64,000 nucleotides of DNA from NCBI GenBank assembly GCA_964624795.1, contig CAZUZS010000015.1, forward strand, positions 2,663-66,662. Direction: 5' to 3'. This DNA is from an uncultured Calditrichaceae bacterium. Lineage in GTDB: Bacteria; Calditrichota; Calditrichia; RBG-13-44-9. This document shows positions 38,065 through 59,134 of this stretch, one piece after another. The translations under genes were made by a program, and so were the position numbers. The notes below the pieces were generated by a model that searched no databases, was not told the DNA's origin, and saw only the letters and a list, made by a program, of their open reading frames with translations. Position 1 is the stretch's first letter. Each line of letters starts with the position of its first letter.

Positions 38065-39993
38065 CTACACCGCATTCAATTGCGATCCTGCAATCCGCAC
38101 ATCTCCCTGGCGTAACGTTATTTTGCTATTATCGAGGTAGGTCAACAGCGGTATCGCAAATTTGCGGGTGGTGCCGGTCAAATCCTTGAATTGCGTTACG
38201 GTCAGCTCGGACGCCTGCCGGAAATGTTCCCGGATAATGCTCACGATCCGGCGAATAACATCTCCGTGAAAAAACAGCTTCTCCTCGACCAAGATCAAGC
38301 TACCTTGTTCCCTCAAAATATTCACCAGCTCTTTGAATTCTTTTTCCGCCAGACCACTATCGTTCAACGCCTCGGCGTAGGTTGGCGGATTGAAATCCGC
38401 TTTTTTATAAAGTTGCTCTATTTTTTCCATTTTCTCCTGCAAGGGTTGCGACAGCCCCGATTGGAATTCGCCGGAAGCGATGGCTTCGCCGGTTTGCTTC
38501 AGGTTTCCATTCTTAAGGCCGTAAGTTACCGCCAACTGGATAAGCTCGTCCGGGTAGCGTCGCCCGATCCGGCTGCTTAACTCCTTCGGGCGCATGCCCG
38601 GCCGGCCGGGGAACTGTGTGTGGTATCTCTGTAAAACCCGCTGCCCCAGTGCCAGAACCATTTCCAACTGTTTCCCGGAATAATAATATTGATCCCCTCC
38701 TTTTGCCAGACGGAAAAGCTCCTGCTTGTTCTGCAAGTCATGGATTATCGCGTCTATTTCATGAATTTCCAGGCCAACCTTTACCTGCAATTCCCGCGGC
38801 GAGTACGGACGAATCTCAGCGACCGAGAAAATTGCGGCTACTCTCGTCTTCCCATCGCTGCTCTCAAGCCCTTCCAGGGATTCCTTGAATTCCTCAAGAT
38901 ATTTTTTGCGGTATTTGGGCGGATTGGTGTTGAGCACCACCCCGCCTCCCAGAGTCACCTGGGGCGAATACTGACGGATGATGAAACGGTCCCTGAATGA
39001 AGCATAAACCGGCTCCTCCAGCCGGAATTGAACAAACCCGGATTCACCGGGCGCGATGACTTTGGATTCCGGAATTATTATGCGGGCAAACACTTCCCTG
39101 GTGTGAACGTGCACACGGAGCCGCATCTGGTTTTGAATAGGGGCAGGAGAATCCGGCAAAACATTCAGCCTGGCATTAAAAAGCACGACAGGATCGTAAA
39201 AGCCGGGCAATGTGATCACCTGGCCGCGATGCAGTTGTTCCATCTCGACGCCGGCTAAATTCAGGGCGGCCCGGAAGCCGGGTTTCACGGATTCGACTTT
39301 GTGATCGTGGCTGTGCAATCCCCTCACCCTGGCCTGAAGCTTCTGCGGCAGAATTTCAACCGCCTGCCCGGAATTGATACTGCCCGAGAGGACGCTGCCC
39401 GTAATCACTGTTCCGAATCCCGGCTTGGTGAACACGCGATCCACCGGCAGCCGAAAAATTCCGTCGTCGGTTCTGGGCTTTATATTTTCCAGATTGCGGG
39501 CAAGCTCTTTCCGGATTTCCTCAATACCCTCCCCGGTCACAGCGGAAGCCTTCAAAACCGGCGCATCCTTGAAAGCAGTTCGGCTCAAAATATCACGGAC
39601 CTCTTCTTCGACCAAAAGCAGCCACTCTTCCTCTACCAGGTCAGTTTTGGTAACGATAAAAATCCCGTTTTCTATACCCAGCAGATTGATGATATCAAGA
39701 TGTTCACGGGTTTGCGGCATTACGCCGTCATCGGCTGCCACCACGAACAGCACCAGGTCGATGGTGCTGACGCCAGCCACCATGTTTTTCACCAGCCGCT
39801 CGTGTCCGGGCACATCGATGATGGTGACATTCTCGCTCAGGTGAGCGAACCCAAGATCGATAGTGATTCCGCGTTCCTGCTCCTCCCGCAGCCGGTCGGT
39901 GTTAATCCCGGTGAGCGCCTGTACCAGCGCCGTTTTGCCGTGGTCTATATGACCGGCCATGCCGATTACAAAGTGTCTGTTTGGGTCTGCCAT
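38065..39993 (-). CDS. selB: Selenocysteine-specific elongation factor SelB
   Basis: EF-Tu-like GTPase N-terminus ([14 protein letters not shown]), 642 aa, C-terminal winged-helix extensions. Adjacent to selA. Confidence 0.95.
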
Positions 39994-40069
39994 TTTTATT
40001 CGATTTCAGCTTTCATTTAATTTCGTGGATCAAGACGCAAGCAGCAGGAGATTCGCCGCTCCCTGTTTA

Positions 40070-41464
40070 TCATTCTTTATCAAAAAGCCGCACGATCTTT
40101 TCAGCAATCATGCTGATCTCATCTTCCCGCACGGTGCGAAGATTGATCATAAATTTGTCATTTTCGATGTAGCATGCTACCGCCGGATCTCCCATTCGCA
40201 GCTTTTTGGCAAACTGCATTAGACCCATCGTTTGGGGCACAATGCCGACTGCGGCCGACGGAATTTTTTCCAGCGGCAGGGCACCGGAACCCATTTGCGA
40301 ATAGGCATCCTCGACTTCAGCAGCCAGCGGAAGATTTTTTAGTTTGCCGATCAGCACCTGGCCACGCCTCTTTAACTCATCCACGGTGACTGTCAACATA
40401 GCCGCCACCGGTAGCTTCTTCGGCAGCTTTGCAGGATTCAGATAGAAGCGCAGGGTCGCATCCAGCAGCGCGTAGGTCAGTTTATCGCAGCGCAGCGCCC
40501 GCAGGAGGTGATTCTTTTTTATCTCTCGCATGAATTCTTTTTTTCCGATGATAATACCAGCCTGCGGCCCACCCAGGATTTTGTCGCCGCTAAACGTAAT
40601 AATATCCGCGCCAGCCTCAATCAGGTCGCGCGCTACCGGCTCGTGCGGATGCCCCCAGTTTGCCAAATCCTCGATGACCCCACTGCCCATATCGTAAATC
40701 AGCGGCATGTCGTGTTTCTTAGCTAATCCTGCCAATTGCTCGACAGGGACGGAATCGGTAAAACCGAGTACGCGGTAGTTGCTGGTATGAACCTTCAGAA
40801 TGGCACCGGTGCGATCATTGATTGCATCTTCATAATCCTGAAGATGGGTTTTGTTTGTGGTCCCGACTTCCACCATTTTAGCTCGGCTGATTTTCATCAC
40901 TTCCGGCATCCGGAACGACCCGCCAATTTCCACCAATTCTCCGCGCGAAACCGGCACTTCTTTCCGGCTGCACAAACTGTTCAGCGCAATCAAAACCGCG
41001 GCGGCATTGTTATTGACCACTTCCACTGCCTCGGCGCCGGTAATGAGACAGAGAATTTCCTCTATGGCATCGGTGCGCCTGCCGCGTTTTCCGGTTTCCA
41101 GGTTGAATTCCAGGTTGCAGTAATTCTGCAGTATTTCTTCAAGATGCAACGCTGCGGCGGGAGCGATCGGCGCTCTCCCCAGGTTGGTGTGCAAAATGAT
41201 CCCGGTTCCGTTTATCACTCGTTTCAGCCGGTGGGCGGCAAGCCTTTCAATCCGGGACTTTACCTGCCGCACTATTTTCTCCTTGATTGCAGCACGGTCG
41301 GCAATTTTCATTTTTGCCCCGGCCTCGAGCTCGGATCGAACTTTTTCAATGGTTTCCTGCACAACGGATTTTAGATAGCGGAAATCAATTTGAATCTCCG
41401 CCAAAGAAGGTTCCTGCAAGACCTCCTGCACCGAAGGAATATTTCGCAGCGGGATTTCAGACAT
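40070..41464 (-). CDS. selA: L-seryl-tRNA(Sec) selenium transferase
   Basis: Start chosen at MSEIPLRNIPSV... (ATG at 41464). It overlaps the upstream stop by 8 nt (ATGTCTGA). PLP-dependent fold with SGDKILGGPQAG lysine region. Confidence 0.92.
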   Translation of the reverse strand: MSEIPLRNIPSVQEVLQEPSLAEIQIDFRYLKSVVQETIEKVRSELEAGAKMKIADRAAIKEKIVRQVKSRIERLAAHRLKRVINGTGIILHTNLGRAPIAPAAALHLEEILQNYCNLEFNLETGKRGRRTDAIEEILCLITGAEAVEVVNNNAAAVLIALNSLCSRKEVPVSRGELVEIGGSFRMPEVMKISRAKMVEVGTTNKTHLQDYEDAINDRTGAILKVHTSNYRVLGFTDSVPVEQLAGLAKKHDMPLIYDMGSGVIEDLANWGHPHEPVARDLIEAGADIITFSGDKILGGPQAGIIIGKKEFMREIKKNHLLRALRCDKLTYALLDATLRFYLNPAKLPKKLPVAAMLTVTVDELKRRGQVLIGKLKNLPLAAEVEDAYSQMGSGALPLEKIPSAAVGIVPQTMGLMQFAKKLRMGDPAVACYIENDKFMINLRTVREDEISMIAEKIVRLFDKE

Positions 41465-42767
41465 TTGGCTGGTTCTCGGGCGATTCATTCTCCGTTGTCT
41501 GCAGTTTTTCGACACGAACTTTGAGGATACGGTTCCGGTTGATTTTTTCAACCACAAATCTATAATTGTTGTATTTGATTTCCTCCTTCTCCTTGGGCAA
41601 CGACCCCAAAATACTGAGGATGAAACCGCTGATGGTCTCCACCCCTTCTTCGGACGGCAGGTCGAGGTCCAGCTCATCGTTCACCTCTTCCAGCGACATC
41701 CGGCCGTCGATCTGGAAAGCGCCTCCTTCCAGTTTCTTGAATAGCGGCGATTCCTTATCATACTCATCCTGGATTTCCCCGACAATCTCTTCGATAATAT
41801 CTTCCAAAGTGACAATACCGGAAATCCCGCCGTACTCATCCACCACCAGCGCCATGTGGATGTGCTCGGCCTGGAACTCCCGAAGAAGCTCATCGATCTT
41901 TTTCTGTTCGGGAACGAAATACGCAGGGCGCGCCAGCTTTTCCAACTCAATCCGTTCGTTCCTTTTTTTGTAGAGATAAGGAAGCAAATCCTTTACATAG
42001 AGAATTCCGATGATGTTATCAATTTTATCTTTGAATACGGGAATCCGCGAATGCAGTTTGGTTTTCACCAGCCGCATCAACTGGGCAAGGGTTGTCGTAG
42101 TATCCACAATAATCATGTCCGTTCGCGGTACCATGATTTCCCTCACGGTGGTATCCCCAAACTCAAAAATGCTGTGGATCATCTCCCTCTCATCTTTCAG
42201 CAGGCTGCCCTGCTCCTCACCTACCTCCGCCAGAGTCTTTAGTTCTTCTTCGGTGAGCATTGTCTTTTCATCCCGGAAGCCGGAGCGGGATTGCAGGAAA
42301 CGGGTGAAGCTGGCAATAGAATAGGAGATAGGGTAAAGCAAGAAGAAGATAAATGTCAGCGGCAGAGACGCCCGGATCGAGAAATTTTCCGAATTCCGCA
42401 CCGCTATGACTTTTGGCAGAATTTCGCTCAAAACCAGGATGACGAATGTAACGACAAACACATCGATCAGGATAATCACATTTTGATTGACACCAACGAA
42501 ATTTGTTAATCGGGATGTTAAAAGAGCGGCGATTGATGCTATGGTGATATTCACCATTGTATTTCCCAGCACAATTGTGATCAATAGCTGGCGGGGCCAC
42601 GACATCAGCTTGGTGATGCGCTGGTCGGAGGTTCGTGTCGAATTTTTAAAGGTTTCGAGCTGGGCGGGAGTAAGTGAAAAATATGCCGTTTCCGAACCGG
42701 AGAAAAAAGCAGAAAGTGTAAGAAGAACGATGAAGATGAGCAGATAAATAGCTATTTCAAGTATCAA
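41457..42767 (-). CDS. CNNM/CorB-type transporter (DUF21 TM domain, tandem CBS, CorC_HlyC)
   Basis: Four N-terminal TM helices with FFSGSETA, CBS pairs, and a C-terminal transporter-associated domain. This is the YbeX/CorC position downstream of ybeY, but with a membrane domain. Confidence 0.88.
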   Translation of the reverse strand: MILEIAIYLLIFIVLLTLSAFFSGSETAYFSLTPAQLETFKNSTRTSDQRITKLMSWPRQLLITIVLGNTMVNITIASIAALLTSRLTNFVGVNQNVIILIDVFVVTFVILVLSEILPKVIAVRNSENFSIRASLPLTFIFFLLYPISYSIASFTRFLQSRSGFRDEKTMLTEEELKTLAEVGEEQGSLLKDEREMIHSIFEFGDTTVREIMVPRTDMIIVDTTTTLAQLMRLVKTKLHSRIPVFKDKIDNIIGILYVKDLLPYLYKKRNERIELEKLARPAYFVPEQKKIDELLREFQAEHIHMALVVDEYGGISGIVTLEDIIEEIVGEIQDEYDKESPLFKKLEGGAFQIDGRMSLEEVNDELDLDLPSEEGVETISGFILSILGSLPKEKEEIKYNNYRFVVEKINRNRILKVRVEKLQTTENESPENQPNV

Positions 42768-48727: not shown

Positions 48728-49735
48728 ATGGAAAAAAAAGTTACCTATCGTGACGCGGGTGTGGATATCGAGAAAGCGGAGAGATCACTTTCCGGTCTGA
48801 AGAAATTGATCGGTGAAACGCACAATGACAGAGTTCTGAAAAATATCGGCGCTTTCGGCGGATTTTATGAATTCCCGGCAAACGAATATGAACGTCCCGT
48901 GCTGATTGCCAGCACCGACGGGGTGGGCACCAAATTGAAAGTGGCCATGATGATGGACCTCCATTCCACAGTCGGGCAGGATCTCGTCAACCACTGTATC
49001 AACGATATTGCGGTATGCGGCGCTACTCCCCTGTTTTTCCTGGACTATTTTGCCTGCGGCAGCCTGCAGGAAGATGTGTACAGGCAAATCATAGAAGGTT
49101 TCGCAACCGCCTGCAAGGCAGCCGGGCTGCCGCTGATCGGCGGTGAAACTGCGGAAATGCCGGATCTCTATTCCGGAAGCGAATATGACCTTGCCGGCAC
49201 AATTGTCGGTGTGGTTGAAAAAGACAAGATTATAGATGGAAGCCGGATAAAGGAGGGTGATGTTCTTATCGGCGTATCTTCCAACGGACTCCACACCAAC
49301 GGCTACTCGCTGGCGCGGAAGGTGCTTTTCCCGAAATACAAACCGGTCGATTACATCGAGGAGATCGGAAATGTACTGGGAGATGAGCTTCTCAAAATTC
49401 ATCTGAATTATTATCCCATAATCGATGAGCTGACCCGGATTTTCGAGGTGCGGGGAATAGCGCACATCACCGGTGGTGGCCTGTTCAAAAATACCGTCCG
49501 GGTCGTGCCTGACGGGCTCGAACCCGAGTTTGATTGGAGAAGCTGGCCGGTGCCTGCCATCTTTCAGTTTATCCGGCGCACGGGAAACGTGCCGGAAGAG
49601 GACATGCGGCAGACCTTTAACATGGGAATCGGGCTGGTGCTGGTGGTCGACCAAAATATGCAGGCCAATATTTTAAGCTATGCAAAAAAGTTTAAGCAGG
49701 AGTTTTATTCAATTGGGGAAATTATTAAAATCTGA
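48728..49735 (+). CDS. purM: Phosphoribosylformylglycinamidine cyclo-ligase (AIR synthetase)
   Basis: PurM N-domain motif DAGVDI and the C-domain, 335 aa. Confidence 0.95.
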   Translation: MEKKVTYRDAGVDIEKAERSLSGLKKLIGETHNDRVLKNIGAFGGFYEFPANEYERPVLIASTDGVGTKLKVAMMMDLHSTVGQDLVNHCINDIAVCGATPLFFLDYFACGSLQEDVYRQIIEGFATACKAAGLPLIGGETAEMPDLYSGSEYDLAGTIVGVVEKDKIIDGSRIKEGDVLIGVSSNGLHTNGYSLARKVLFPKYKPVDYIEEIGNVLGDELLKIHLNYYPIIDELTRIFEVRGIAHITGGGLFKNTVRVVPDGLEPEFDWRSWPVPAIFQFIRRTGNVPEEDMRQTFNMGIGLVLVVDQNMQANILSYAKKFKQEFYSIGEIIKI

Positions 49736-57079: not shown

Positions 57080-57121
57080 AAAAAATGGGAGAGCAAGCGT
57101 TTCCCGCTCTCCCATTTTTTG
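57080..57121 (-). terminator. Intrinsic terminator of trpB2 (bidirectional)
   Basis: AAAAA-AUGGGAGAGC-11 nt loop-GCUCUCCCAU-UUUUUU: a 10-bp perfect stem. It lies 9 nt downstream of the trpB2 stop. Confidence 0.8.
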
Positions 57122-57129
57122 ATCCCGAA

Positions 57130-58446
57130 TCAGACAGCTTCCTTCATCGTTTTATCCACCAGATTGCCGCCCAGGAAGGCTTCATAGGCAGACAGATCGA
57201 GCAATCCGTGACCAGACAGATTGAACACGATCGTTTTCTGCTTCCCCTCCTTCCTGGCAATTTCAGCCTGCTGAATCGCAGCCTGCACCGCGTGCGCCGA
57301 CTCCGGCGCCGGAACAATGCCTTCGGTTTGGGCAAACAGCACCGCACCATTAAAAATATCATGCTGTCCGATTGCCTGTGCCGAAATCAGGTTGTTAGCC
57401 AGGAGTGCGCTTACCAGCGGGGCCGCGCCGTGGTAACGCAATCCGCCGGCATGAATAGTCGGGGGAATAAAGCCGTGTCCCAGTGAATACATTTTCAGAA
57501 GCGGCGTAAGCCCGGCGGTGTCGCCGAAGTCGTATTCCATTTTACCCTGCGTCAGTGTCGGGCAAGATTCCGGCTCAACCGCGATGACATCAATATCGCG
57601 CCCGTTTATTTTATCACGCAAGAACGGGAAAGCCAAGCCTGAGAAATTGCTGCCGCCGCCGTGACAACCGATAATGACATCCGGGTAATCACCGGCCAGC
57701 TTGAACTGCTCCTGGGCCTCCTGGCCAATAATTGTCTGGTGCAGCAGCACGTGATTGAGCACGCTTCCCAGCGAATATTTGGAGTCCTCCCGCTGTACCG
57801 CCTCTTCAATCGCTTCCGAAATAGCAATTCCCAAGCTGCCGGGACAGTCGGGATCGTTCTGCAGGATTCTCCGTCCCGCTTCGGTGCGGTTGGAAGGCGA
57901 CGGGTAAATTTCTGCACCGTAGAGATTCATCATGGTTTTGCGGTGCGGTTTCTGCTCGTAGCTAACACGCACCATATAAACGGTACAATCCATCTTAAAA
58001 AGCTGGCAGGCATAAGCCAGGGAACTTCCCCACTGCCCCGCCCCGGTCTCGGTGACCAGCTTTTTGGTGCCATCGACCTTGTTGTAGTAAGCCTGGGAAA
58101 TTGCGGTATTTGGTTTGTGGCTGCCGGTTGGTGAAACTCCCTCGTATTTGTAATAGATTTTCGCCGGGGTTTTCAACGCCGCCTCCAGCCGTGTAGCGCG
58201 GATAAGCGGAGTTGGACGATAAATCGCATAAGCTTCGCGAACTGCATCCGGAATTGGAATCTCACGTTCGGAGCTCATCTCCTGTTCAATTAGCGACATG
58301 GGAAATATGGGCAGCATATCATCCGGGGAAATGGGCTGTTTTGTACCCGGGTGCAGGGGCGGATCCAGTTGAAAAGGTAAATCGGCCGCCAGATTGTAAT
58401 AATGGGTGGGAATCTGGTTTTGGGTGAGTAAAAATTGTCGTTCCAT
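57130..58446 (-). CDS. trpB: Tryptophan synthase beta-like protein (TrpB2-type, standalone)
   Basis: PLP lysine motif GSHKPN, about 50-aa N-terminal extension relative to TrpB1 ([13 protein letters not shown]), glycine-rich [11 protein letters not shown] loop. Start chosen at ATG 58446 with an AAGGAG SD. There is no trpA or other trp gene nearby. Confidence 0.88.
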
Positions 58447-58476
58447 GATATTCTCCTTATTTTTAGAACGGATTAG

Positions 58477-58510
58477 AAACAAAAAACCCGCTTCCGGAAT
58501 TGGCAGCGGG
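58477..58510 (-). terminator. Attenuator terminator in the trpB2 leader
   Basis: CCCGCU-GCCAAUUCCGGA-AGCGGG followed by UUUUUUGUUU. It lies between the leader-peptide stop and the trpB2 SD. The upstream segment GGCGGUGGG (58560-58568) can pair with the 5' arm (CCCGCUGCC) as an alternative antiterminator. Confidence 0.7.
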
Positions 58511-58536
58511 CTTATCTTAATTTATTTGAAATTAGA

Positions 58537-58623
58537 TTATTTGTCGAAAGCGTACCTTACCCACCGCCAAAAAAGATGGCGCCACCACCATGTAGAAGTT
58601 GTCCGGGTAAAGTTTAAAAACAT
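58537..58623 (-). CDS. Trp-rich leader peptide (MFLNFTRTTSTWWWRHLFWRWVRYAFDK), putative trpL-like attenuation peptide
   Basis: ATG is preceded by a GAGGA SD with a 6-nt spacer. The 28 codons include UGG UGG UGG plus two more UGG, so 5 of 28 residues are Trp. A TAA stop lies 27 nt before the terminator hairpin. Confidence 0.6.
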   Translation of the reverse strand: MFLNFTRTTSTWWWRHLFWRWVRYAFDK

Positions 58624-58647
58624 CCTGCGTCCTCAATAATTTTGACT

Positions 58648-58675
58648 AATATAGTGATAGAATGTTAAAATGCAA
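58648..58675 (-). promoter_or_regulatory. Candidate sigma70 promoter for the trp leader/trpB2 transcript
   Basis: TTGCAT-16 nt-TATATT, about 25 nt upstream of the leader ATG. Confidence 0.4.
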
Positions 58676-58810
58676 ATCATTTTTCCAATTTTTGAATCCC
58701 GCGAAGGGCAGGTCAGATTAACGGTTCACAGAAGTAAAAAAGTCTTGATTTATTTTATGATGATGTTTATCTTTGCCGTGCTTTTTGGGCTTTAGAGGTC
58801 TATGTGTTTA

Positions 58811-58902
58811 GGAGAGGTGGCCGAGCTGGCTGAAGGCGCTCGCCTGCTAAGTGAGTGTAGTGGCTAAAACCGCTACCGAGGGTTCGAATCCCTCCCTCTC
58901 CG
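58811..58902 (+). tRNA. tRNA-Ser (anticodon GCU)
   Basis: 92 nt with a long variable arm. Anticodon loop CUGCUAA. Acceptor GGAGAGG/CCUCUCC, T arm GAGGGUUCGAAUCCCUC. Confidence 0.9.
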
Positions 58903-58910
58903 CTAAAAAG

Positions 58911-58986: not shown

Positions 58987-59070
58987 GGAGGGCTAGTCCT
59001 AATTGGTAAGGCGGCGGTCTTGAAAACCGCTGCGCGTAAGCGCTTGGGGGTTCGAGTCCCTCGCCCTCCG
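58987..59070 (+). tRNA. tRNA-Ser (anticodon UGA)
   Basis: Acceptor GGAGGGC/GCCCUCC, anticodon loop CUUGAAA, long variable arm UGCGCGUAAGCGC. This is not tRNA-Sec, which would have anticodon UCA. Confidence 0.88.
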
Positions 59071-59134
59071 CAAATCATTTCGTGGCAATCCTGCAGAATG
59101 TCATTTTTCTTTAGGAATATCTTTTAGGCAACTG

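Follow-up and report, generated by a model that had tools for sequence, protein, structure and literature searches.

Background

When does a bacterium need a tryptophan synthase gene that stands alone, and what tells the cell to express it? The question is raised by trpB2 on the minus strand of a 64,000-nt stretch of DNA (hereafter the window) from an uncultured Calditrichaceae bacterium (assembly GCA_964624795.1, contig CAZUZS010000015.1). A short open reading frame (ORF) with three consecutive Trp codons and an intrinsic terminator lie between this gene and a promoter. TrpB2 enzymes are widespread, and in many cases their genes lie apart from trp operons. Salvage of indole has been proposed as their role, and their preference in vitro is for O-phosphoserine. 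Their natural role in the cell is a matter of long-standing debate. We propose, with considerable confidence, that the compact and well defined element ahead of trpB2 (about 200 nt) is a ribosome-mediated leader-peptide transcription attenuator, which senses charged tRNA-Trp and controls the monocistronic gene.

The leader unit and its alternative helices

A preliminary description of this locus, made from the sequence alone, had reported a 28-codon Trp-rich ORF with a GAGGA Shine-Dalgarno (SD) sequence and a TTGCAT-16-TATATT promoter. All of these are present (Table 1). The promoter is sigma-70-like and was listed in a promoter scan as TTTGCA-17-TATATT with 9 of 12 matches; transcription would start at about 58641, approximately 18 nt 5´ of the ORF. 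Five of the 28 leader codons specify Trp, the residue that makes up 0.70% of the long ORFs of the window. Three of them form the WWW run at codons 12-14, and the remaining two, codons 19 and 21, lie inside segment 2 of the RNA structure described below. A small ORF containing WWW is by itself unremarkable and could be due to chance, as 2 of the 844 window ORFs of 15-60 aa have this property. The folding energy of the whole leader is ordinary as well (z -0.87). Because a single Trp-run ORF could arise by chance, the comparison with relatives is decisive.

The intrinsic terminator (segments 3 and 4), which the preliminary description had recognized, has a folding energy of -16.7 kcal/mol, while dinucleotide shuffles give -8.2 +/- 2.2 (z -3.9) and a single shuffle out of 200 was as good. 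It ends in U6GU3. The described architecture stood, with small corrections of spacing: the leader stop codon is separated from CCCGCU by 26 nt and not 27, and the U-tract from the trpB2 SD by 18 nt and not about 20. A simple terminator scan missed this terminator because of its G/A mismatch. Instead, the scan flagged as terminator-like a small hairpin inside the ORF, AUGGUG-GUGG-CGCCAU, which holds the Trp run, is followed by CUUUUUU and also appears in the predicted fold. Reading from the alignment of relatives (A1, see below), the same 6-bp hairpin occurs at locus L167 and shorter GGUG..CACC forms at L083 and L174. We speculate that hairpin and CUUUUUU might constitute an RNA polymerase pause site that synchronizes ribosome and polymerase.

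Two further helices compete with each other and with the terminator. The antiterminator (2:3) pairs UUGGCGGUGGGU with GCCCGCUGCCAA over 12 bp, three of them G-U, at about -19 kcal/mol, and is the predicted fold of RNA in which the terminator lacks its 3´ arm. An antiterminator between the last Trp codons and the 5´ arm of the terminator had been proposed before; it exists and is longer than was described. The core of the earlier description of the attenuator also holds, but it overlooked the anti-antiterminator (1:2), in which ACUUUACCC pairs with GGGUAAGGU. This helix is present in both the minimum free energy and the centroid structure of the full-length leader. It overlaps the antiterminator arm and so completes the set of four segments known from classical attenuators.

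Conservation and covariation in Calditrichota

Scans of GTDB genomes and metagenomes with TrpB2 yielded listed matches mostly of 60-66% identity, only four of them close; further close trpB2 loci were supplied by exact-protein look-ups of twelve relatives. In total, 16 distinct Calditrichota trpB2 loci, the window included, were available for comparison (TrpB2 identity 72-80%). The attenuator unit is found at 15 of them. It begins with a purine-rich SD and an ORF of 22-34 codons that contains between two and four successive UGG. Next come a segment rich in G, translated in most cases as W-R/Q-W-V, and an A/U-rich spacer. The unit ends with a CCCG(C/U)UG...C(A/G)(G/A)CGGG terminator and its U-tract, mostly 15-30 nt 5´ of the trpB2 SD. 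Leader peptides of relatives include MPSSFAHCSFYWWWCVNWRWVTYV, MFIQLTHDNFAWWWCLFWQWVRSIS and MNTYFTHINLNWWWWRITSGNGWSMVYMP.

The signals for expression are kept too. In the relatives (n=15), TTGnnn-N16-18-TAtatT with an A-rich tract on its 5´ side lies 12-53 nt ahead of the leader ATG, at comparable spacing, and nearly all of them have SD-like purine-rich elements at most 12 nt 5´ of the start codon. Across the UGG run, the Trp frame opens with ATG in 15 of 16 sequences (GTG in the sixteenth), while the other two frames do so in 0/16 and 1/16. The expectation that relatives would share a Trp-rich leader ORF is thus borne out at 15 of the 16 loci, L173 having only two isolated Trp codons. Conservation of the peptide itself is confined to residues on which RNA helices or Trp codons impose a constraint.

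All three helices covary in a MAFFT alignment of the 16 sequences (A1). In the terminator, 93.8% of the cells are paired as compared with 36-55% in slid controls, and two pairs changed on both sides (C-G to U-A and A-U to G-C). The antiterminator reaches 81.6% versus 33-52%, with six pairs changed on both sides, and helix 1:2 reaches 74.9% versus 34-46%, with seven. The observed covariation score was attained by zero or at most one shuffle per helix. The antiterminator is therefore conserved along with the terminator, as the preliminary description had anticipated. All the sequence-level checks which that description had proposed turned out favorably. The strongest single piece of covariation evidence, in our view, comes from L165, L173 and L174, where three positions change together. 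At column 170 of the terminator, C of CCCGCUG (the one preceding UG) is replaced by U, and both of its alternative partners change along, from G to A at column 187 in the terminator and from G to A at column 99 in the antiterminator. Some members use a shifted register of helix 1:2, for example L083 with UCAAAUUAC:GUAAUUUGA.

For a covariance model (R1), A1 was supplied with helices 1:2 and 3:4 alone. The model recovers all members of the family at 74-132 bits and matches three distant loci, L142 (59.9 bits), L132 (47.2) and L077 (41.8). A 19-sequence alignment, not fitted to the antiterminator, still has 78.8% of antiterminator cells paired versus 34-52% in slid controls, and 6-7 pairs are doubly changed over both alignments. 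There, one antiterminator pair is U-G or C-G in Calditrichota and U-A where the terminator reads CCCACU.

Table 1. Features of the leader, of trpB2 and of related operons (window coordinates unless a locus is named)
Feature	Position	Strand	Remarks
Leader promoter	58648-58676	-	-35 TTGCAT 58675-58670; 16-nt spacer; -10 TATATT 58653-58648; A-rich tract on 5´ side
Leader SD GAGGA	58634-58630	-	6 nt 5´ of leader ATG
Leader ORF	58537-58623	-	28 codons + TAA; peptide MFLNFTRTTSTWWWRHLFWRWVRYAFDK
Segment 1 ACUUUACCC	58605-58613	-	leader codons 4-7; 5´ arm of 1:2 anti-antiterminator
Small hairpin AUGGUG-GUGG-CGCCAU	58576-58591	-	holds Trp run; then CUUUUUU (58591-58570 overall)
Regulatory UGG-UGG-UGG run	58582-58590	-	leader codons 12-14; WW to WWWW aligned in 15/16 sequences
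Segment 2	58554-58570	-	antiterminator 5´ arm UUGGCGGUGGGU 58570-58559; overlaps 1:2 3´ arm GGGUAAGGU 58562-58554
Segments 3 + 4, intrinsic terminator AAGCCCGCUgCC-AAUUCC-GGaAGCGGGUU	58484-58513	-	5´ arm 58511-58500 doubles as antiterminator 3´ arm GCCCGCUGCCAA
Terminator U-tract U6 G U3	58477-58486	-	kept in 16/16 sequences
trpB2 coding sequence	57130-58446	-	438 aa; SD AAGGAG 58458-58453; PALP domain
trpB2 3´ terminator AAAAAAUGGGAGAGC-loop-GCUCUCCCAUUUUUU	57080-57120	-	15-bp hairpin, 9 nt past TGA
Two tRNA-Ser genes	58811-58903, 58987-59071	+	anticodons GCT, TGA; divergent from leader promoter
Leader + serK-like ORF, then trpB2	L077:2925-3958, L132:1738-2791, L142:941-2001		L077 is a Cytophagia metagenome-assembled genome

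A model of the switch

The features that define leader-peptide Trp attenuators at the level of sequence (an ORF with SD, a Trp run, a terminator and helices 2:3 and 1:2) are all found in the window. Together with their conservation, with the constraint on spacing and with covariation in each of the three helices, they argue for the architecture of ribosome-mediated trp attenuation, which is how the preliminary description had read the locus. We infer that stalling, kinetics and the response to Trp in vivo follow the usual scheme, outlined here.

When charged tRNA-Trp is scarce, the ribosome would stall at the UGG codons 12-14. In this position it would lie between segments 1 and 2 and block helix 1:2, with its leading edge just short of segment 2. 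Once segment 3 emerges from the polymerase, segment 2 would pair with it over 12 bp. The terminator would then not form and the polymerase would enter trpB2. When charged tRNA-Trp is plentiful, the ribosome would pass over segment 2 and reach the stop codon. Segment 2 would be first covered by the ribosome and later recaptured by segment 1 behind it, leaving segment 3 to segment 4; transcription would end at the U-tract, 30 nt 5´ of the trpB2 start codon. Without any translation, 1:2 and 3:4 would form, again resulting in termination.

The geometry is favorable for this model. Ribosome footprints and the mRNA entry channel indicate that about 12 nt past the first base of the A-site codon are shielded. 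Counted from the first base of the final Trp codon in the run, the antiterminator core starts 13-16 nt further on in 14 of 16 sequences; nine of these have precisely 13 nt, and the window has 16. A ribosome stalled in the run would therefore leave segment 2 just exposed.

Predicted folds agree with most of the scheme. The free full-length leader folds as 1:2 plus terminator, with a mean terminator probability of 0.89. In free RNA that ends before segment 3, the core of segment 2 is mostly paired (mean probability of being unpaired 0.22). To represent stalling, a ribosome was modelled on the last Trp codon of RNA that ended before segment 4; the antiterminator then has a probability of at least 0.96 in 15 of 16 sequences.

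Several points weigh against the attenuation model. Firstly, folding at equilibrium does not reproduce the switch throughout. In free RNA truncated before segment 4, helix 2:3 is often thermodynamically preferred to 1:2 (mean probability 0.69). With segment 4 present and a stalled ribosome modelled, 10 of 16 sequences, the window not among them, continue to favor the terminator. Thermodynamics alone cannot demonstrate the switch. Since the terminator is favored at equilibrium despite a stalled ribosome, the switch must be kinetic, as in E. coli; kinetic switching is an assumption of our model, and so is coupling of transcription and translation in Calditrichota. Secondly, the stop codon of the window leader lies 20 nt past the antiterminator core and a ribosome residing there leaves segment 2 unmasked. 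Termination would thus depend on quick re-forming of 1:2 behind the ribosome, a dependence that fits the compensatory conservation of this helix. The Trp codons 19 and 21 lie within segment 2, and a stall at them would favor termination.

The remaining difficulties come from the relatives. L173 (2314-2477) keeps all three helices, but its run has become UGG-CGG-CAG. The closest relative of all (L163/L164, 80% TrpB2 identity) has neither the Trp ORF nor segment 2. Only the hairpin AACCUGCUG...CAGCGGGUU is left there (L163:2841-2972, L164:1810-1940), its U-tract is degraded and the covariance model scores it at about 30 bits. Judged by these remnants, the attenuator has decayed in the L163/L164 lineage.

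Alternative explanations

Could the leader be something other than an attenuator read by the ribosome? One proposal is a chance ORF beside a constitutive or leaky terminator, without any regulation. It can draw on the 2 of 844 small window ORFs with WWW, on the ordinary folding energy (z -0.87) and on the closest relative that lacks the leader ORF. Nevertheless, we find it hardly credible, because ORF, frame, Trp run, three helices and spacing are kept across 15 lineages with compensatory substitutions. A nascent peptide acting like TnaC, which would sense free Trp inside the ribosome and induce trpB2 at high Trp, deserves just as little belief. It would account for a Trp-containing leader peptide 5´ of a gene of Trp metabolism. 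TnaC systems, however, rely on Rho-dependent termination and on a peptide whose conserved pattern, W-x3-D-x7-P, runs up to the stop codon. Our leader has an intrinsic terminator and a competing hairpin instead; beyond the Trp run no peptide motif is conserved, and the distance from run to stop codon varies. Moreover, induction of Trp synthase under Trp excess makes no physiological sense. Another view is that the choice between terminator and antiterminator is made by a tRNA or a protein, in the manner of T-box or TRAP systems or through an unknown RNA-binding protein, and that the ORF is incidental. T-box and TRAP systems do use alternative structures of this kind, and translation of the leader ORF is deduced from its sequence. 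We regard this as very unlikely, as the leader has no match to T-box, to other riboswitches or to leader families even at E <= 10. TRAP requires 9-11 (G/U)AG repeats at intervals of 2-3 nt that overlap with the antiterminator, and positions 58641-58477 contain one GAG and no UAG. A protein-only model also does not require the conserved SD, start codon, open Trp frame and 13-16 nt spacing.

It is also unlikely, in our opinion, that the unit from promoter to terminator is mainly a gene for a trans-acting small RNA or small protein, like rnTrpL and peTrpL of Sinorhizobium, with control of trpB2 secondary. The unit does have a promoter and a terminator of its own, and its transcript would be a free RNA of about 165 nt; trans-acting RNAs and peptides derived from attenuators are on record (PMC6614838, PMC7298713). 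Yet the unit always stands directly 5´ of trpB2, or of a serK-like gene plus trpB2, on the same strand. A covarying antiterminator would be purposeless in a free-standing small RNA, and the peptide is conserved only under constraint from RNA helices or Trp codons. A scan of the 64-kb window with R1 found no second copy of the leader. Any role in trans would in fact add to control in cis and is compatible with it. Attenuation by a translating ribosome is accordingly the explanation we retain.

The regulated gene and its surroundings

The downstream gene had been named trpB2, and profile scores agree. Its product scores 728.4 bits against NF009057 (cut-off 366) and 662.2 bits against TIGR01415 (cut-off 518.85), while the score against canonical trpB, TIGR00263, is 155.7 bits and below the cut-off of 392.45. 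On this basis the regulated gene is assigned to the TrpB2 class. Apart from an identical (100%) record, its next relatives show 75-80% identity and are named Calditrichaeota, Calditrichota or Calditrichia. The mechanical ORF list starts trpB2 at TTG 58482 (57130-58482) and reads through the U-tract of the attenuator. The ATG at 58446, preceded by an SD, is the start consistent with homologues. An over-extended automatic annotation of this kind could hide an attenuator terminator.

No other trp genes were found in the window by Pfam searches that covered 44 of 48 ORFs of at least 110 aa (six without Pfam match). The earlier statement on a lone trpB2 is therefore upheld, and the gene of the window is stand-alone and monocistronic. 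The terminator placed 9 nt past its stop codon is there, with a stem of 15 bp rather than the claimed 10; its A- and U-rich flanks suggest that it may be bidirectional. Genes for a TRAM/RumA-type methyltransferase and a SpoU methylase follow 3´ of trpB2. Pfam scans of the window further identified genes for pyruvate dehydrogenase E1, lpd, ftsZ/ftsA, a mur/dcw cluster, ruvABC, queA/queG, dxs, selA/selB, a selD-like protein and peptidase M3.

On the other side of the leader, the two tRNA-Ser genes read away from it. The attenuator terminator thus ends no upstream gene and sits in a 5´ leader. The same tRNA-Ser pair is found 5´ of the leader in L083, L161, L162, L167 and L176, which represents conserved synteny; it is probably unrelated to serine as a substrate of TrpB.

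A few other observations were made at these loci. Selenocysteine machinery is encoded in the window by selB, selA and an AIR-synthase-family (selD-like) gene (38065-41677 on the minus strand, 48728-49735 on the plus strand); no tRNA-Sec is among the tRNA genes that ARAGORN detects in the window. In a Calditrichota relative (L174:3856-6308), trpB2 is convergent with genes of aromatic amino acid metabolism, for a DAHP synthase/chorismate mutase fusion, a prephenate dehydrogenase and an aminotransferase. At L167:2817-3000, about 180 nt separate the attenuator U-tract from trpB2 and include a TTGACA-like hexamer, which may belong to a second, unattenuated promoter.

Related leaders and a possible operon of a kinase homologue and trpB2

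Leaders of similar design occur outside Calditrichota. A leader ORF with a W run and a terminator precedes trpB2 in metagenome-assembled genomes (MAGs) of Melioribacter roseus (L050) and of Flavobacteriales (L060) and in several others; the leader of L144 resembles that of L060. Among the matches listed, most of the approximately 150 distant trpB2 loci have no such combination of W-run leader and terminator. The M. roseus leader MKIEIKNIVTKSWWWNTSLPLF (L050:150-330) looks independent in origin and is followed by two tandem terminators. Reading its sequence, the UGG run GGUGGAA can pair with UUCCAC, and CUUCCACU with AGUGGAAG in the first terminator, a layout that is closer to E. coli trpL than that of the window leader.

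The three distant matches of R1 (L077, L132 and L142) are of another kind. They have a leader of the R1 type, with a WWWW run, a CCCACU terminator and an AGUGGG antiterminator, approximately 1 kb 5´ of trpB2, and an ORF of about 290 aa occupies the space between. Its product has no Pfam match. Over its full length it resembles the NCBIfam model of SbnI (E 5e-17 to 4e-23), the PDB entries 6nr6 and 5ujd (E about 1e-10) and the archaeal ADP-dependent serine kinase SerK (E 7e-9 to 6e-11). All the SbnI and SerK scores are below curated cut-offs, so the product is to be taken as a homologue and not as a confirmed equivalent. Among the matches listed for the window and 176 loci, an SbnI/SerK-like gene is present only at these three.

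SbnI, an O-phospho-L-serine synthase, and SerK are both free serine kinases (PMC12704722; PMC5120207). TrpB2 enzymes, for their part, are described as O-phosphoserine-dependent Trp synthases (Busch et al. 2014) with high affinity for indole (Busch 2014, Hettwer & Sterner 2002), in each case as cited in PMC11917138. If TrpB2 uses O-phosphoserine and the kinase homologue makes it, a Trp-attenuated kinase-trpB2 operon is chemically coherent. The arrangement suggests that in each of L077, L132 and L142 a serine-kinase homologue and TrpB2 are encoded, in this order, by one Trp-attenuated operon. More broadly, the leaders might form an uncatalogued family dedicated to TrpB2 across Calditrichota, with relatives (42-60 bits with the covariance model) in Cytophagia-like or metagenomic lineages and with the three kinase-homologue operons among them; in our judgement, the case for and against this extended view is evenly balanced.

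What could these leaders tell about TrpB2? A switch that reads tRNA-Trp at a monocistronic trpB2 argues that the job of the enzyme in vivo is to supply Trp under shortage, and operons with a kinase homologue between the same type of leader and trpB2 fit O-phosphoserine chemistry. If our assumptions are true, TrpB2 represents a module induced by shortage of charged tRNA-Trp, which makes Trp from scavenged indole and O-phosphoserine, the latter supplied by the kinase where needed. This would be the first regulatory evidence on the physiological role of TrpB2. We see the main value of the finding in such evidence on the cellular role of the enzyme.

Comparison with known attenuators

The novelty of the leader was overstated in the preliminary description, as its mechanism is the textbook one. 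The switch itself is therefore unsurprising. Like E. coli and other enterobacterial trpL, the window leader has a short ORF that follows an SD and contains UGG codons in tandem, four segments in which 1:2 plus 3:4 excludes 2:3, an intrinsic terminator just 5´ of the first structural gene, and a downstream gene that makes Trp. There are also clear differences. The E. coli ORF has 14 codons and ours 28. The regulatory Trp codons lie in segment 1 in E. coli and in the loop of 1:2 in the window, which has additional UGG codons in its antiterminator arm. A ribosome at the E. coli stop codon masks segment 2, whereas the stop codon of the window is 20 nt beyond and leaves it unmasked. Finally, E. coli trpL controls trpEDCBA, and the window leader a single stand-alone trpB2 in the phylum Calditrichota.

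Comparison with curated RNA families gave a similar picture. The best Rfam match is RF00513 Trp_leader, aligned on UGGUGG codons and the CCCGC...GCGGG-U terminator. With 25.7 bits (E 0.0031 in a 321-nt search) it remains below the gathering score of 41, and membership in this family was rejected. At gathering score, only tRNAs and 5S rRNA were detected in the window and 20 related loci. T-box RF00230 was rejected for lack of a match at E <= 10. A TRAP-regulated leader of the Bacillus type was also rejected, on the grounds of the (G/U)AG count given above. Bacteroid-trp RNAs are reported to combine a Trp-codon leader ORF and a terminator ahead of trp genes in the broader FCB (Fibrobacteres-Chlorobi-Bacteroidetes) group, to which Calditrichota are related. 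This motif, RF01692, is presented as a candidate cis-regulatory leader in Bacteroidetes (Weinberg et al. 2010, PMC2864571). It gave no match in the window at E <= 10 and none at gathering score in the 20 related loci, L060 included; the window leader thus belongs to a different sequence and structure family.

Other precedents come from comparative genomics and from single-gene attenuators. Trp attenuators with UGG leader peptides were predicted in Actinobacteria (Seliverstov et al. 2005, PMC1262725). They share with our leader conserved complementary triples common to antiterminator and terminator, and differ in phylum and sequence. One of them precedes a 'trpB2A' operon of Corynebacterium diphtheriae (PMC1262725). 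Here 'trpB2' designates a second trpB copy co-transcribed with trpA, and membership in the TrpB2 class (TIGR01415) is not shown for it. As only the gene name is common to both, we rejected it as a precedent. In our search of the (incompletely searchable) literature, no published description of Trp-leader control of a TrpB2-class gene was found.

A parallel in genetic organization is trpL of Sinorhizobium meliloti. Trp genes are scattered in this bacterium, and trpL is, according to PMC6614838, a ribosome-dependent Trp attenuator 5´ of the single trpE(G). Both leaders are Trp attenuators ahead of one trp gene. That of S. meliloti controls the first enzyme of the pathway and not a salvage-type beta subunit, and the trans functions of rnTrpL and peTrpL are shown for that system. 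Taken together, these comparisons place the window leader, on the evidence of its sequence and covariation, as an uncatalogued member of a well-known attenuator class that lies outside the curated RNA families. With this element, which current Rfam models miss, leader-peptide attenuation is extended to the little-studied Calditrichota on good evidence from covariation.

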